Positions 4,015 through 38,100 of a DNA stretch of 64,000 bases are shown in pieces. A program made the translations under genes and the position numbers. Origin of the DNA: Acidimicrobiia bacterium (GTDB lineage: Bacteria > Actinomycetota > Acidimicrobiia > Spongiisociales > ZC4RG35); assembly GCA_036259475.1 (NCBI GenBank), contig DATABS010000094.1:11801-75800 (forward strand), written 5' to 3'. The notes under the pieces were generated by a model. It saw only the letters and a list, made by a program, of their open reading frames with translations, did no database searches and was not told where the DNA came from. Every line of letters begins with the position of its first letter. Position 1 is the stretch's first letter.

Positions 4015-4928
4015 CTCCGCTGATGGTCTTGGCGGCGACCGCATCGGCGGTGGTGATAGGTGCTCTGATGTGGCTCCTCGTCCCGCCGACTCCCCGGCTG
4101 GCGGGTCGCGTCCGTCCCTACGTGTCGCCTTCGGAGGCGTCTCGCTCCAACCATCCGAGATCCGCCGTGGCTCGGATCTTCGGGCCGATAGTCATCCGGC
4201 TCGCCACGGCTTTGGGCCGGCGTCTCGACCCCTCGGGAGATGAGGCCCTGGCGGTGCGTCTGCGTCAGGCCGGTGTCTACCCGGACCTGAGCGACGCCGA
4301 CCGCGTTGGCGCCTTCCGCCTTCGTCAACTCCGCTCGCTGCTGATCGGAGGAGTTGGAGGCGGGCTCGTTGCGACCGCCCTGGGGTTCTCGACCCAGGGA
4401 GTCGTGGGCTTGGTGATGGTCGGCGGCGTTGCCACTTTGGGTCGCACGCGGGGAAGGGTGGAGCGGCTGCTGGAGGATCGTCGCCTGCGGATGAGGATCG
4501 AGATCTACACCATCGATCAGCTCCTCGCCCTGCGGGTGAGGGCCGGAGGGGCGGTCATGCAAGCGGTCGCCCAGGTGGTCAACCGGGGCCGAGGGGAGGT
4601 GGTGACGGAACTTGCCGAGGCGGCGCGGCTTCATCGTGCCGGAATGACGGTGGCTGAGGCGTTCGGGCGAATCGCCGATCTCAGCGCAGAACCGGCCTGC
4701 GCCCGGACCTACCGCCTCCTGGCGATCGCCGACGAGCGCGGTGTCGACCTGGCGGCGGGTCTCCTGGCGCTGGCGGAGGATGTACGCGAAACGCGCCGGG
4801 AAGCGATGAAGCGAGCGGCCACGCGCCGTCGGGCGGCGATGCTCGTGCCGACGATTGCACTCCTAGCCCCCACCCTCATGCTGTTCGTCGCCGCTCCCCT
4901 TCCCTATCTCCTGACCGGCTGGCGATGA
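4011..4928 (+). CDS. tadC: TadC (second T2SS-F domain inner membrane protein)
   Basis: GTG at 4011 overlapping the tadB stop (GTGA); N- and C-terminal TM helices; paralogous position after tadB. Confidence 0.7.
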   Translation: MTPLMVLAATASAVVIGALMWLLVPPTPRLAGRVRPYVSPSEASRSNHPRSAVARIFGPIVIRLATALGRRLDPSGDEALAVRLRQAGVYPDLSDADRVGAFRLRQLRSLLIGGVGGGLVATALGFSTQGVVGLVMVGGVATLGRTRGRVERLLEDRRLRMRIEIYTIDQLLALRVRAGGAVMQAVAQVVNRGRGEVVTELAEAARLHRAGMTVAEAFGRIADLSAEPACARTYRLLAIADERGVDLAAGLLALAEDVRETRREAMKRAATRRRAAMLVPTIALLAPTLMLFVAAPLPYLLTGWR

Positions 4929-7371: not shown

Positions 7372-7446
7372 TCGGGGGTGGTGTAATAGGCAACACGGCA
7401 GGTTCTGGCCCTGTTATTGAGGGTTCGAGTCCTTCCCCCCGAGCCA
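7372..7446 (+). tRNA. tRNA-Gln (anticodon CUG)
   Basis: hand-folded cloverleaf: acceptor TCGGGGG/CCCCCGA, D-stem GTGT/ACAC, anticodon loop TTCTGGC, T-loop TTCGAGT, encoded CCA. Confidence 0.8.
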
Positions 7447-7471
7447 TCGGCCCTCCTCGGAGGGCCGTCCT

Positions 7472-7547
7472 GGCCCCGTCGTCTAGCGGCCTAGGACGCT
7501 GGCCTCTCAAGCCAGTAACGGGGGTTCGAATCCCCTCGGGGCTACCA
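7472..7547 (+). tRNA. tRNA-Glu (anticodon CUC)
   Basis: acceptor GGCCCCG/CGGGGCT, anticodon stem CTGGC/GCCAG with loop CTCTCAA, T-loop TTCGAAT, encoded CCA. Confidence 0.8.
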
Positions 7548-7554
7548 GGCACAC

Positions 7555-7582
7555 GAACCCCCGCTGCGGCGGGGGTTCGGTC
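7555..7582 (+). terminator. GC-rich stem-loop after the tRNA pair (gaacccccgc-tgcg-gcgggggttc)
   Basis: perfect 10-bp inverted repeat with 4-nt loop; no U-tract. Confidence 0.4.
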
Positions 7583-7614
7583 AATTCTGGCTGGCTCCTC
7601 GGTTGCGCTCTCTG

Positions 7615-7963
7615 TCAGATGGCACGCATCCGGTTGTTGCGCGGGTTGTGTTCCACCTCGGCCAGACCGAGCGCTTCGAGGACCGGCGGAATGTAGTTGC
7701 CGACCCGGCCCCGGAGGCCCTTCTTCAAGCCGTTACCATCCGCCGATCGGATTGTCGGGGGACCGGGCCCACGCTTCGACGGTGCCCTCGGTGGCCGGCT
7801 TCTGTTCATCGGCGTTCCCGAGGGGCACCCAATCGCCCTGCTCCTTCAGCATCTGGTGGAGATCGTCGCTTACGGTGACCGGGCAGCCGGACGCCGCGAT
7901 CGTCTTCGAGCCGTTTTCCGGGGGCAGGATCTGCGAGCAGGCCGCCGACGGTGCCCAACACAC
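7615..7963 (-). pseudogene. frameshifted gene remnant (two overlapping minus-strand ORFs in different frames, 7733-7963 and 7615-7809)
   Basis: two partial ORFs overlap across 7733-7809 in different frames (...GTVEAWARSPDNPIGGW then ...GNYIPPVLEALGLAEVEHNPRNNRMRAI); no intact reading frame; sits beside tRNA genes. Confidence 0.4.
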
Positions 7964-8069
7964 CTGGGGCGAAGTACTGCTCTGGCAGCTGAGTCTGTCA
8001 GCTCTAAAGTTGACGTACGTATGCTTTAGAAATAGAGTGCCTCTCTAGCCATACAGCGAGAGGTGAACT

Positions 8070-33650: not shown

Positions 33651-34418
33651 ATGAAGATCGTTCGATTCAAGGCCGGTGACGACATCGCCTACGGGCTGGC
33701 AGAGGCGGACGGGGTCACCCTCTACCAGGGAACGCCCTTTGTAGCCTGGGAGCCGACGGAAACGCTCATCCCCTGGGAGTCGGTACAGCTGCTGGCCCCG
33801 GTCTTGCCCTCCAAGGTGGTGGCGGTGGGCAAGAACTACGCCGACCATGCCGAGGAGATGGAGTCGGATATCCCCGAGGAGCCGATCATCTTCCTCAAGC
33901 CGGCCACCGCCGTCGTGGGCCCCAACGTTCACGTCGTCAAGCCGTCCGAGAGCGACGCGGTCCATCATGAGGCCGAACTGGCCGTAGTCATGGGCCGGGT
34001 GGCACGGCGAGTCCGGGCGGAGGACGCCTCCCAGTACGTCTTCGGGTACACCGCCGCCAACGACGTCACCGCCCGCGATCTCCAGCGGAAGGACGGCCAG
34101 TGGACCAGGGCCAAGGGCTTCGACACCTTCTGCCCGCTCGGGCCGGCCATCGAAACAGAACTCGACCCGCTCGAGCGGCTGGCGGTCATCGCCCGGGTGA
34201 ACGGTGAGGTGCGCCAGGCCGGATTCACCGTAGACATGGTCTTCGGCGTCGCCGAGCTCCTCGAGTTCATCACCCGGGTCATGACGCTCCTCCCGGGCGA
34301 CGTCGTGCTCACCGGTACGCCCTCCGGCGTGGGGCCGGTGGAGGTCGGCGATCTCATGGAGATCGAAGTCGACGGGATCGGTGTGTTGGCCAACCGGCTG
34401 GTGGCAGGCGGACAATGA
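33651..34418 (+). CDS. fumarylacetoacetate hydrolase (FAH) family protein
   Basis: FAH-fold motifs ([38 protein letters not shown]). Confidence 0.8.
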
Positions 34419-35824
34419 CGGTCCGAGTCAGAGTGGCTCCCTCGCCGACCGGCAACCTCCACGTCGGAACTGCTCGGGCCGCCCTGTACAACTGGCTTTA
34501 CGCCCGTCACACCGGCGGCACGTTCATCGTTCGTGTCGATGACACAGACGTCGCCCGCTCGACTCCTGAGTTCGAGTCCAACATCCTCGCCAGCCTCCGC
34601 TGGCTCGGCCTCGACTGGGACGAGGGGGTGGAGATAGGAGGCTCCCACGGCGACTATCGGCAATCGTCGCGCTTCGACCGGTACCGCCAGGTCGCCCACC
34701 AACTGGTTGCGGAAGGCGCTGCCTATTTCGACGACCGTTCATCCGACGAGCTCGACATCTTGCGCACTCGAGCGCAGCAGGAAGGCAAGCATCCGGGCCA
34801 CTACATCCGCCCTCCGGACGAGCCGAGGTCGGAGGGGGTCATCCGATTCGCCGCGAACCAGGCGGTGGAGTTCCAGGATCTCATCCGCGGCGACATGCGC
34901 TTCGACGGCGATTCGATCGACGACTTCGTGATTCTTCGTAGCGACGGCACACCCACCTACCACCTGGCATCCACTGTCGACGACGTCGACTACGGCATCA
35001 CCCACGTGGCCCGGGGCGAGGACCTTCTGTCGTCGACGCCCAAGCACATTCTGATCACGCGGGCAATGAGTGTAGAACCGCCGGTCTACGCCCACCTGCC
35101 ACTCCTGTTCGGCGCCGACGGCAAGAAGCTGTCGAAGCGCCACGGTGCCACCGCGGTGGACGAGTTCCGCCAGATGGGGTTTCTGCCCGACGCCATGGTC
35201 AATTACCTGGCACTCCTGGGATGGTCGCCCGGTGACGACCTGACCGTCTTCGACCGTCAACTGGCAGTCGACCGTTTCGACCTCTCAGATGTTCAGAAGA
35301 ACCCGGCAGTGTTCGATCTCGACAAGCTGACCTGGCTCAACGGCGAGTACATCCGGGCGATGGATCCGGCCGAATTCGCCGCTGAGGTCCGTCCACTGGT
35401 CGAGGACGCCGTCGGTTCGCTCACCGACGAGAAGTGGGCCGCCTTCGAAGCGCTGGCTCCACTCGTCCAGGAGCGGACCAAGCTCCTTCCCGAAGCAGCC
35501 GACCAGGCGCGGTTCCTCTACGTCGATGACCTGGAATACGACGAACAGTCCTGGAACAAGGTGATGGACAGGGAAGGCGTGTCAGAGGTCCTCGACGCAT
35601 CGCTCGCTGCCCTGACCGCGCTGGACGAGTGGGACACCGAATCGATCGAAGCCACGCTACGCCGGCTTCCAGACCGTCTCGAGCGAGGCGCGGGCAAAGT
35701 GTTCCAGCCGATCAGGGTGGCGGTGACCGGCTCGTCGGTCAGCCCGCCGCTGTTCGAGTCGGTCGCCGCCCTGGGACGCAACCCGTCGCTGGAGCGACTC
35801 CGGGAGGCTCGCCGTCGCCTCTAG
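34415..35824 (+). CDS. gltX: glutamate--tRNA ligase
   Basis: class I HIGH-like ([10 protein letters not shown]) and KMSKS (KLSKRHG) motifs; ATGA overlap with the FAH gene. Confidence 0.9.
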
Positions 35825-35830
35825 GCGCCA

Positions 35831-35859
35831 TTGGTGAACCCGACCGGGTGGGATACCAT
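35831..35859 (+). promoter_or_regulatory. candidate promoter for tRNA-Glu(UUC) (TTGGTG-17-TACCAT)
   Basis: hexamers read from sequence about 12 nt upstream of the tRNA 5' end. Confidence 0.3.
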
Positions 35860-35870
35860 TCGCAAGGCAC

Positions 35871-35943
35871 GGCCCCGTCGTCCAGCGGTCTAGGACGCCG
35901 GCCTTTCAAGCCGGTAACGCGGGTTCGAATCCCGTCGGGGCTA
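35871..35943 (+). tRNA. tRNA-Glu (anticodon UUC)
   Basis: acceptor GGCCCCG/CGGGGCT, anticodon stem CCGGC/GCCGG with loop CTTTCAA, T-loop TTCGAAT; CCA not encoded. Confidence 0.8.
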
Positions 35944-36124
35944 CACCAATACAGCGTGTCGGGACGCCGGGCTCCATTCATGGCCGGTAACGCGGGTTTC
36001 GAATCCCGTCGGGGCTACACCAACCCTTCGTGTCGGGACGCCGGGCTCCATTCGTGGCCGGTAACGCGGGTTCGAATCCCGTCGGGGCTACCCCAACCTT
36101 TCGTATCTTGTCGGGGGCTACCCC
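35944..36124 (+). repeat. tandem array of 2.5 degenerate tRNA-Glu-derived copies (about 73-nt period), pseudo-tRNAs lacking the 5' acceptor strand
   Basis: copies at 35944-36017, 36018-36090 and partial 36091-36124 share the 3' half GGCCGGTAACGCGGGTT(T)CGAATCCCGTCGGGGCTAC with the tRNA but have a rearranged 5' half GTGTCGGGACGCCGGGCTCCATTC(A/G)T. Confidence 0.6.
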
Positions 36125-36193
36125 TCCGAATGTCCCAAGGCGGATTCGATATCCGAATCGAGGCAGGCCGGTGATGGCGGGGTCCATCTCGTT

Positions 36194-36448
36194 TTGAGCG
36201 GCGAGCTCGGCCTGTCCTCAGTCGATCGGTTGCAGTCGGTGATTCTCAACCATCTCGACGGTGCGGTCTTGGTGATCGACACGACGGACTTGGCCTTCCT
36301 CGACTCCACCGGCCTCGGAATACTCGTCTCTGTTGGCAAGCAACTCGGACCGGACCGGTTCCAGCTGATCCCCGGCGATGCGACCCTGCGAATCCTCGAG
36401 CTGTCTGGCACCAAGGACTATCTTCTTGACTCTGCCGATCACGAGTAA
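36194..36448 (+). CDS. STAS-domain anti-sigma-factor antagonist (SpoIIAA-like), apparently N-terminally truncated
   Basis: LDSTGLGILV STAS core; the in-frame sequence upstream back to 36065 encodes the expected first beta-strand (GVHLVLSGELGL) but contains no ATG/GTG/TTG; first possible start is TTG at 36194. Confidence 0.45.
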   Translation: MSGELGLSSVDRLQSVILNHLDGAVLVIDTTDLAFLDSTGLGILVSVGKQLGPDRFQLIPGDATLRILELSGTKDYLLDSADHE

Positions 36449-36469
36449 CGGTCGAATGTAGACCTGGGC

Positions 36470-37189
36470 CTAGGAGGCGGCGATCCGCAGCCGTTCCAGG
36501 CCGTCGAGAATCAAGTCCAGCCCGAACTCGAACTCCGACTGGTCGTCGCACCAGCCCAGCGTCGCATCGGGATCGTCGTGGGCTATCTCGGCCAACATGC
36601 CCGTGAGGTTGGGAAATTGGCCTGCCATTTGCTCGAGCATCGCCGCCGTGTCGTCGTCCTCCTCGTCTCCATCCCCGCTGCTGTTGGCAGGAACGAAGAG
36701 CTCCTGGGTGAACCCGAGGGCGCGGCTTCCGAGGGCGTGCATACCGTGATGAGCCAGGTCGTAGGAGAAACCACCCTGGCGGAGCAATCCCAGTACAGAG
36801 TCGATGTACGCCATGATCGCCGGGCTGACACTGGTGCGCGATTCGATCACACCGGGTGCCCATGGGTGCCGCAGCAAAACGGCGCGGGCGGTCAGAATCC
36901 TTTGTCTGACAGCATCCTTCCATCCCCCGCTGGGCTGCCTGGCTTCGACTTTCTCCGCCTCGGCGATGATTTCTTCGACTACGACGTCCACGACGCCATC
37001 GAGAATCTCCTCCTTGTTGGCGATGTGGTAGTAGAGCGACATCGCCTCCACGCCGAGCTCGTGGGCCAGCTTGCGCATCGTGAGTGCCTCGACTCCGTCC
37101 CGATCAGCCAGTCTGACGGCGGCCTGGAGAACTCGCTCCTTGCTGAGCGGAGTCCGGGCGGGGGGGCGGTCTTCGGATCGAGCGGCCAT
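36470..37189 (-). CDS. TetR/AcrR family transcriptional regulator
   Basis: N-terminal HTH (LTMRKLAHELGVEAMSLYYHIANKEEIL), about 240 aa. Confidence 0.8.
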   Translation of the reverse strand: MAARSEDRPPARTPLSKERVLQAAVRLADRDGVEALTMRKLAHELGVEAMSLYYHIANKEEILDGVVDVVVEEIIAEAEKVEARQPSGGWKDAVRQRILTARAVLLRHPWAPGVIESRTSVSPAIMAYIDSVLGLLRQGGFSYDLAHHGMHALGSRALGFTQELFVPANSSGDGDEEDDDTAAMLEQMAGQFPNLTGMLAEIAHDDPDATLGWCDDQSEFEFGLDLILDGLERLRIAAS

Positions 37190-37937: not shown

Positions 37938-38100
37938 TCTCAGTCGTGTCGTTCCTCGACGACTGAAGAACGCGTCAAGTCGAACGCCGGCGTCGTGGAT
38001 GATTGCTGGAGGCGGTCCGGCCACGGGCTCGACGTCGAGTCAGGCTGGAATGACGGGAGAGCGATATTTTCCTGGGGTCTCTACGATTCCCTCGATTTCC

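Follow-up and report, generated by a model that had tools for sequence, protein, structure and literature searches.

The DNA analysed in this work is a 64,000-nucleotide stretch (the window) of an Acidimicrobiia metagenome-assembled genome (MAG; GCA_036259475.1, contig DATABS010000094.1, positions 11,801 to 75,800), and its subject is a tRNA-Glu(UUC) gene which is followed by an array of tandem tRNA-derived units and by a damaged gene for a STAS-domain protein (anti-sigma-factor antagonist). The features of this locus lie on the plus strand. The conserved upstream anchor is gltX (34415-35824, from the list of open reading frames (ORFs)), encoding the glutamyl-tRNA synthetase, the product of which is 100% identical to P0006, the NCBI entry 'MAG TPA: glutamate--tRNA ligase [Acidimicrobiia bacterium]'. 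The functional tRNA-Glu(UUC) follows at 35871-35943: it is the single ARAGORN call of the locus (tRNA-Glu(ttc), 35871-35944), matches the Rfam tRNA model RF00005 over its full length (35871-35943, 67.9 bits), has a cloverleaf as its minimum-energy fold (-35.1 kcal/mol, z -2.1) and is preceded, about 12 nt to the 5' side, by a conserved GATACCAT box. Nothing else at the locus is recognised as a canonical tRNA, either by ARAGORN or by the Rfam covariance model. The motif TTGGTGAACC...GATACCAT is kept 5' of the gltX-linked tRNA-Glu(UUC) in several lineages (window 35835-35870, L150:6437-6477, L151:3235-3270) and, lying in the short spacer between gltX and the tRNA, probably serves the tRNA as a promoter of its own. 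A scan of positions 35700-36600 gave no sigma-70-like promoter and just one weak terminator-like site.

Behind the tRNA, Tandem Repeats Finder (TRF) reports a repeat at 35910-36097 with a period of 74, 2.6 copies and 93% matches. The units were delimited from the sequence itself, TRF, shuffles and alignment. Unit 1 (35944-36017, 74 nt) is composed of the spacer CACCAATACAGCG, the left arm TGTCGGGACGCCGGGCT, an enlarged and altered loop CCATTCATGG and a right part which equals tRNA positions 39-73 except that its T loop is longer by one T. Unit 2 (36018-36090, 73 nt) is built in the same way with the other spacer type, CACCAACCCTTCG, and its right part is exactly that of the tRNA. The repeat is direct and in the same orientation, the 35 nt concerned (positions 39-73 plus 1) being identical in unit 2 and carrying the one inserted T in unit 1. 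The 22-nt 3' end of the tRNA is found again at 35996 and 36069 and a unit-specific 30-mer is present twice, while neither gave a chance match in 100 shuffles. In alignment to the tRNA the units carry GGACGCCGG (positions 22-30) with TGTCGG before it, resembling a D stem without its loop, and a 13-nt stretch (GCT CCATTC ATGG) stands in place of the 7-nt anticodon loop and its closing pair, the unit loop being about 4 nt longer than an anticodon loop; the D loop and the 5' acceptor strand are absent. The array ends, as read from the sequence, in a stub unit of 30 nt (36091-36120), composed of a spacer and GTCGGGGGCTA alone, in which roughly the final 11 tRNA bases are kept and the tRNA 3' half is not. 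The stub is consistent with a unit whose interior was deleted between its two GTCGGG motifs, and comparable stubs are present in the related loci L150 and L022 described below.

The units are neither tRNAs nor stably structured. ARAGORN makes no call on them, and the Rfam tRNA model gives no match either in the window (E up to 10) or in L022 (E up to 5); no Rfam family of any kind matches the units of either sequence. Folded singly they fall below their shuffles (z +1.13 for unit 1 and +1.57 for unit 2). With RNAalifold on seven units a three-helix shape lacking the D arm can be drawn, with a covariation term of +0.08, and the sole double change in the seven-unit alignment mirrors the local tRNA. 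Neither folding beyond shuffles, nor covariation, nor an Rfam match thus marks the units as structured RNA. An nhmmer profile of the unit scores 55-65 bits on units (64 on unit 1 and 65 on unit 2) against 45 bits or less on tRNA-Glu genes, and it detected no further units. Other classes of element considered were an array of CRISPR type, dropped for want of unique spacers, a retroelement primer-binding site, dropped for want of a CCA complement, and a permuted tRNA, dropped for want of a 5' acceptor strand.

A close relative, the JGI contig L022, has flanks 96-98% identical to the window and the same downstream genes TetR, DUF4389, DsbB, redoxin and RpiB. Its tRNA is identical to that of the window, and behind it stand five units, of which two have internal deletions; their order differs from that in the window, as does the unit closest to the tRNA. 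The array turns over fast. The original prediction, an intact tRNA-Glu(UUC) with tandem decayed copies, is borne out by ARAGORN, Rfam, TRF and shuffles with coordinates correct to within a base; of its three units of about 73 nt sharing the tRNA 3' half, units 1 and 2 are as described and the third is not, consisting of spacer and GTCGGGGGCTA only. Its view that the units are not tRNAs agrees with the ARAGORN and Rfam checks, the copy-number variation which it anticipated at the orthologous locus exists, and its proposal of recombination scars at the tRNA 3' end, as opposed to a stable conserved architecture, is supported.

Behind the array L022 carries an alpha/beta-hydrolase gene, a 310-nt leader and an intact STAS gene. 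In the window the deletion junction lies at 36121-36129, as located by blastn against L022, by alignment and by the sequences of L022, L023 and L024, and homology to the relatives restarts at 36124 (CTCCGA ATG), 6 nt before the STAS ATG. About 1.27 kb of L022 is missing, that is the alpha/beta hydrolase gene and the 310-nt STAS leader with its GGTGATC ribosome-binding site. Since the last 100 nt or so of this leader are conserved in the more distant loci L025 and L026, the state of the window is a deletion which removed the expression signals of STAS. The conserved portion (L022:1728-1822, L025:197-298, L026:~490-602), deleted in the window, holds a TATATTGT box, a CCCGGGTC..GACCC(C/T)GC segment and GGTGATC, of Shine-Dalgarno type, 5 nt before the ATG; it could represent a promoter together with a regulatory RNA or protein-binding site. 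A deletion between two GATCTCC repeats of L022 was rejected as the origin of the junction, which it does not exactly reproduce. Further downstream the DUF4389-DsbB intergenic DNA is unrelated between the window (37964-38073, 110 nt) and L022 (L022:3653-3961, 309 nt), a second replacement or indel nearby.

The STAS gene of the window (36130-36448; translations, Pfam, homolog N-termini and rate of nonsynonymous substitution, dN) is a pseudogene. Its native ATG at 36130 is followed by a shift of frame after codon 13, leading to a premature TGA at 36172-36174, and the remainder of the domain is encoded in the +1 frame as far as the TAA at 36446-36448. The cause, seen in alignment with L022, L023 and L024, is a 4-nt tandem duplication (AGGC-AGGC, 36161-36168): the window reads AGGCAGGC, the three relatives, from three different samples, have a single AGGC, and this is the only length difference in the nucleotide alignment. 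In the frame of GVHLVLSGELGL there is indeed, as first noted and as the translations show, no start codon back to a stop at 36062-36064 (no ATG, GTG or TTG between this TAA and a TTG at 36194). The conclusion drawn from it, that STAS lacks a start, does not hold; the ATG at 36130 in the neighbouring frame, which had been missed, encodes MSQGGFDIRIEAGR followed by a stop, and this is the true STAS N-terminus (MSQGGFDIRIEAG). The homologs P0002-P0005 begin M-x-x-G-G-F-D-I-x-I-x-A-G (for example MFQDGFEAKIEAGDSGIRLVLSGELD and MVYGGFDIDIDAGAGKVRLVLSGELD), and because these N-termini match the frame of ATG 36130, the native start is present and the gene is frameshifted. Nor was the 5' end of the coding sequence overwritten, as had been suggested: what was lost is the region upstream of position -6.

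The frameshift, the loss of expression signals and relaxed constraint together make STAS a pseudogene. The open frame which starts at 36130 runs into the stop at 36172, and both GGTGATC and the leader are gone. Between the window and L022 the STAS gene has a dN of 0.100 and a ratio of dN to the synonymous rate (dN/dS) of 0.76, compared with 0.002-0.013 and 0.04-0.29, respectively, for five neighbouring genes, which is about tenfold in dN. When substitutions were polarised with outgroups, 11 fell in the window lineage and 6 in that of L022, with 8 ambiguous, and in the window lineage otherwise conserved residues have changed (R to H, GELD to GELG). Most of the excess in dN lies in the first 120 nt (36130-36250), where the gene diverges from L022 by about 22%, as against about 5% in its remainder and about 2% in the neighbours; the 22% tract exceeds what relaxed constraint alone would give, and it suggests a recombination tract or error-prone repair beside the deletion junction.

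The repaired protein resembles the SpoIIAA/RsbV-type STAS antagonists: it matches Pfam STAS_2 (33.8 bits) and STAS (32.1 bits), both above the cut-off, and keeps the DSTG motif (in the alignment of STAS proteins the Ser, Gly and Leu of DSTGL are invariant and Thr is replaced by Ser in P0005), and its relatives adjoin HATPase_c_2 genes of the anti-sigma kinase type. The window copy differs from these antagonists in its frameshift, in the lost leader and ribosome-binding site and in its relaxed constraint. What remains is a TTG-initiated residual ORF of 84 amino acids (36194-36448, from the ORF list) without the first beta-strand region, which is P0001, a 'STAS domain-containing protein' in NCBI. 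It is very unlikely that STAS is still expressed, either from TTG 36194 as annotated or by programmed +1 frameshifting at CGG-TGA. An annotated 84-residue ORF with STAS Pfam matches and the position of the shift site at a stop codon would be in keeping with expression, but the leader with its ribosome-binding site is deleted, the excess in dN and the changes at conserved residues are those of a decaying gene, CGG to GGU offers no re-pairing for a slip, and all four homologs are unshifted, including the copy of the near-identical relative (L022, L023, L024). On this last ground programmed frameshifting was dropped.

The unit family is clade-wide but patchy and occurs in at least four other Acidimicrobiia-type lineages, beside both the UUC and the CUC isoacceptor; the sample consists of six lineages, two of them known from antisense ORFs alone. 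L150, an NCBI MAG whose gltX is 75% identical to that of the window, keeps the synteny FTHFS-FAA hydrolase-gltX-tRNA-Glu and has, behind tRNA-Glu(UUC), a stub, a full unit (GGACGCCGGGCTGTGTCCATGGCCGGTAAC...) and another stub, the genes downstream of the tRNA being unrelated to those of the window. A search of protein databases with translations of the array returned spurious antisense ORFs which cross such arrays. Through one of these antisense ORFs L163 was found, where a unit lies 66 nt past the 3' end of a tRNA-Glu(CUC) preceded by tRNA-Gln, the 66-nt gap being composed of the trailer and a terminator-like hairpin. The antisense ORF P0127 probably marks a further gltX-linked array. P0142 (SRR5437588_65423), likewise the product of an antisense ORF, came from an exhaustive search of 1.84 billion representatives and its cluster mate P0143 (SRR5438270_3522946) from another soil run; downstream of tRNA-Glu(CUC) the former has two and the latter three identical 93-nt units. 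With the TRF array of the window and the five units of L022, these two runs identify the units as a polymorphic tandem repeat.

No units follow the tRNA-Glu(UUC) of L001 and L035 or the tRNA-Glu(CUC) of the window (7472-7547). The tRNA-Gln(CUG)-tRNA-Glu(CUC) pair of the window (7372-7600) has a clean GC-rich terminator hairpin and no units behind it, unlike the same pair in L163. Among 200 tRNAs of the loci compared, L163 not among them, nearby copies of the 3' end were present only in the window, L022 and L150, together with L128 and, weakly, L004. The copy in L128 (L128:13460-13653) is of another duplication type than the unit family: 63 nt past tRNA-Glu(CUC), the last 12 or so nt, the trailer and the terminator are repeated with 1 mismatch, preceded by an inverted piece of the T loop (GGATTCGAACC), and the contig ends there. 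A metagenome scan with a unit-specific pattern had no match, and one with the tRNA 3' end gave 120 loci, mostly tRNA-Glu(CUC) of other actinobacteria and none with a close array. Seven Logan contigs (L151-L157) which carry one gltX allele (the P0016 lineage) all end inside tRNA-Glu, six of them at positions 30-33 of the tRNA and the seventh at the GTCGGG close to its 3' end, and are uninformative on arrays; their ends are branch points of the assembly graph at sequence common to other tRNA-Glu copies or units. The contig found by look-up of TetR (L148) ends before STAS, and exact look-ups of gltX, the FAA hydrolase and P0001 gave no contig.

Comparison of these lineages shows that the units are hybrids. 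The left part is common to all of them and consists of TGTCGGGGACGCCGGGCT and the altered loop, or in its fuller form TGTC(G)GGGACGCCGGGCT, loop and ATG(G); the 13-nt loop is identical between lineages at 9-10 of 13 positions, and the spacers are unrelated. The right part, that is the 3' strand of the anticodon stem, the variable loop, the T arm, the 3' acceptor strand and the first bases of the trailer, follows the resident tRNA. The units of the window, L022 and L150 have a CGGG/CCCG T stem with their own discriminator base and trailer, and the L163 unit joins the left arm of the family to a CCGG/CCGG T stem and a trailer (CACGTATCGA) which are those of its local tRNA. For the P0142 unit, degenerate back-translation of the antisense peptide, which fixes two bases per codon, gives a left arm of which all 8 determinable bases agree with the family sequence ACG CCG GGC NCC and only 5 of the 8 with the ACG CAG CCC TCT of its local tRNA. 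Within L022 the loop of the tRNA-proximal unit, CTGCTC, is closer to those of L150 and L163 than to the CCATTC of its neighbours. The likeness of the left arms is too high for neutral sequence at a gltX protein difference of 25%, so that the left arm is either mobile or constrained.

We favour, with a probability of roughly 0.55, a composite origin in which the units are attR-like scars of a family of integrative elements at tRNA-Glu, amplified by unequal recombination. Mobile elements which target tRNA-Glu would integrate site-specifically and form an attR-like site, its left arm coming from the attachment (att) site of the element, attP, and its right arm from the host tRNA, and the body of the element would then be lost. 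Unequal crossing-over or slippage between identical segments of at least 35 nt would expand, contract, reorder and internally delete the units. The deletion of about 1.27 kb, which starts at the distal edge of the array, removed the hydrolase gene together with the promoter, leader and ribosome-binding site of STAS, and the STAS gene additionally has its 4-nt duplication and has drifted. We infer both the involvement of an integrase or mobile element and the order of events. A foreign left arm common to different hosts combined with a local right arm, as seen in L163 and, by back-translation, in P0142, is the structure of an attR site, as formed on integration into the tRNA of an element with a tRNA-like segment in its attP. 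The constant period, the identical neighbours, the copy-number polymorphism, the reordering and the internal deletions from GTCGGG to GTCGGG are accounted for by unequal exchange or slippage between segments of at least 35 nt placed 74 nt apart.

The use of tRNA-Glu as an integration site is shown by two other loci and by a break of synteny. In L001 a decayed mobile element lies directly behind tRNA-Glu(UUC) (L001:5530-8300), with a minus-strand remnant of the C-terminal part of an integrase (LGHSSIQVTMDRYGHL; a sub-threshold match to Pfam Phage_integrase at E 0.08), a frameshifted RecD/TraA-like helicase (AAA_30/UvrD_C_2), two HTH_17 genes of excisionase type and a DUF4258/MqsA-like toxin-antitoxin pair. 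L142 has two att-type fragments of the tRNA-Glu 3' half 3.6 kb apart (4248-4320 and 7938-8000), neither within an intact tRNA. Between the window and L150 the downstream synteny breaks at tRNA-Glu. The second fragment of L142 is followed by a mini-duplication, CGTCGGGGCTACCGGACGCCGTCGGGGCTACC, and no clear integrase ORF lies between the two fragments.

The array could also have arisen by purely local means, a possibility which is unlikely but deserves serious consideration: a 74-nt segment made up of the 3' two-thirds of the tRNA and its trailer would have been duplicated in tandem by slippage or illegitimate recombination, mutated and amplified with no mobile element taking part. The period is that of one offset tRNA-plus-trailer segment, right part and trailer match the local tRNA in every lineage, L128 has a plain copy of tRNA 3' end, trailer and terminator without the family left arm, the identical units of P0142 and P0143 were clearly amplified locally, and there is no integrase nearby. 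Such an origin does not explain why the same derived left arm and enlarged loop stand at two tRNA-Glu genes, in genomes with gltX 75% identical and with unrelated spacers, why the left arm of P0142 is closer to the family consensus than to its local tRNA, or why the tRNA-proximal loop of L022 resembles those of distant lineages over that of its neighbours. Selection on RNA could account for the same likeness if the units were functional, as D-arm-less tRNA-like processing signals for RNase P/Z, as decoys or as small RNAs (sRNAs) co-transcribed with tRNA-Glu, selection then maintaining the left part, and concerted evolution with the tRNA the right part. In keeping with this are a left arm and loop length conserved across lineages beyond neutral drift, the tRNA-like RNAalifold shape (an acceptor-like stem, a 4-bp hairpin and the T arm) and a weak mascRNA-like match on one L022 unit (19.3 bits, E 1.1). 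We consider it rather improbable, however: the folding, covariation and Rfam results given above speak against it, the loop sequences vary from lineage to lineage, either the T arm or the left arm is gone from many copies, relatives have anything from 0 to 5 copies, and the left and right 'stem' strands of the P0142 unit, as back-translated, would be unable to pair. The alternative raised in the original prediction, that the units are processed sRNAs, finds no support for the same reasons (z +1.1 and +1.6, no covariation, internal deletions in several copies).

That the array, its copy number or the 4-nt duplication are products of mis-assembly of a metagenome bin is the least probable of these explanations and can nearly be set aside. 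Short-read assemblies are error-prone at tandem repeats and the seven related-lineage Logan contigs all break inside tRNA-Glu, but arrays of the same family occur in independent JGI, NCBI, ENA and SRA-derived assemblies, the units of the window differ from each other and were therefore resolved, not collapsed, and the frameshift is accompanied by independent signs of decay. There is finally a slender chance that the units are not debris but something new, either a conserved tRNA-like element without a D arm, derived from tRNA-Glu and maintained beside the tRNA-Glu genes of Acidimicrobiia, which might work in RNA processing, as a decoy or as a recombinase's dedicated docking array, or the first footprint of an undescribed integrative family targeting tRNA-Glu.

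Several observations weigh against the origin from integrative elements which we favour. The window holds no integrase, no island DNA and no element bearing attP; in four scans of viral collections the unit motif was matched by chance alone, within coding regions, and the tRNA half not at all, and BLAST against phages and plasmids matched tRNA-Glu genes only. The genes downstream of the array in the window are syntenic with L022, and a decayed element at tRNA-Glu(UUC) is found only in the distant relative L001. The tRNA-like parts are just 14-66 nt apart, so that integrase chemistry alone is insufficient; as the units abut each other, every lineage would require a further deletion step, and the composite origin gives no account of the complete loss of the element bodies in all of them. 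Within a genome the period hardly varies, which speaks for the amplification of one unit and not for serial integrations, and gene conversion or simple local duplication would equally lead to the sharing of one T-arm type by tRNA and units in each genome. In GC and third-codon-position GC (GC3) the L022 hydrolase segment is typical of the genome, its composition showing no foreign origin, the left arm of P0142 was compared through a back-translated peptide and not as DNA, and the 4-nt duplication is known from one metagenome-assembled sequence.

Integration-derived fragments of tRNA genes are pervasive in prokaryotes (PMC9897764), and the integrative elements of actinomycetes target tRNA 3' ends and form unstable tandem arrays, three direct repeats at one tRNA being possible, as with the tandem elements at the tRNA-Arg of Frankia; the survey of 2011 found no such elements in the subclass Acidimicrobidae (PMC3218068). 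Like the tRNA fragments left at att sites, the copies in the window reach from the region of the anticodon arm to the 3' end, lie downstream of an intact tRNA and are non-functional, and in the related L001 the same tRNA adjoins a decayed element which bears an integrase. Such a fragment is normally single and kilobases away, at the far end of an island, whereas here two to five abut the tRNA with a period of 73-120 nt, and neither island DNA between them nor an integrase or attP came to light. Remnants with att sites on either side are known as 'cis-mobilizable' from work on ICESt1 of Streptococcus thermophilus. With the accretion of integrative elements in tandem the locus has in common several att-like sites in direct orientation at one tRNA and an unstable, strain-variable array, but the 'elements' between the sites are just 14-66 nt long and growth of the array looks mostly like homologous unequal exchange and not like new integrations. 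With minisatellite-type repeats, which grow and shrink through slippage or unequal crossing-over, it shares units (73-93 nt) arranged head to tail, a copy number that varies between near-identical genomes or samples, and deletions between short repeats; it differs in that a functional tRNA gene is both source and anchor of the unit, and in that the unit's left part is common to distant lineages. What sets the locus apart from the known cases is the close packing without island DNA, the occurrence of one hybrid family at two tRNA-Glu isoacceptor genes, and the collateral deletion and pseudogenisation.

Some consequences concern annotation. The public record lists an 84-amino acid STAS protein where a frameshifted pseudogene lies, and the units are open to being mistaken for tRNAs or genes, the spurious antisense ORFs P0126, P0127, P0142 and P0143 being already present in protein databases. 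For the biology of this clade, the gltX-linked and Gln-linked tRNA-Glu genes are recombination hot spots, giving rise to short hybrid repeats, changing their order within a species and initiating deletions by which genes nearby are destroyed. If it is true that the common left arm is the attP arm, it would provide a ready-made probe for integrative elements in the poorly known Acidimicrobiia.

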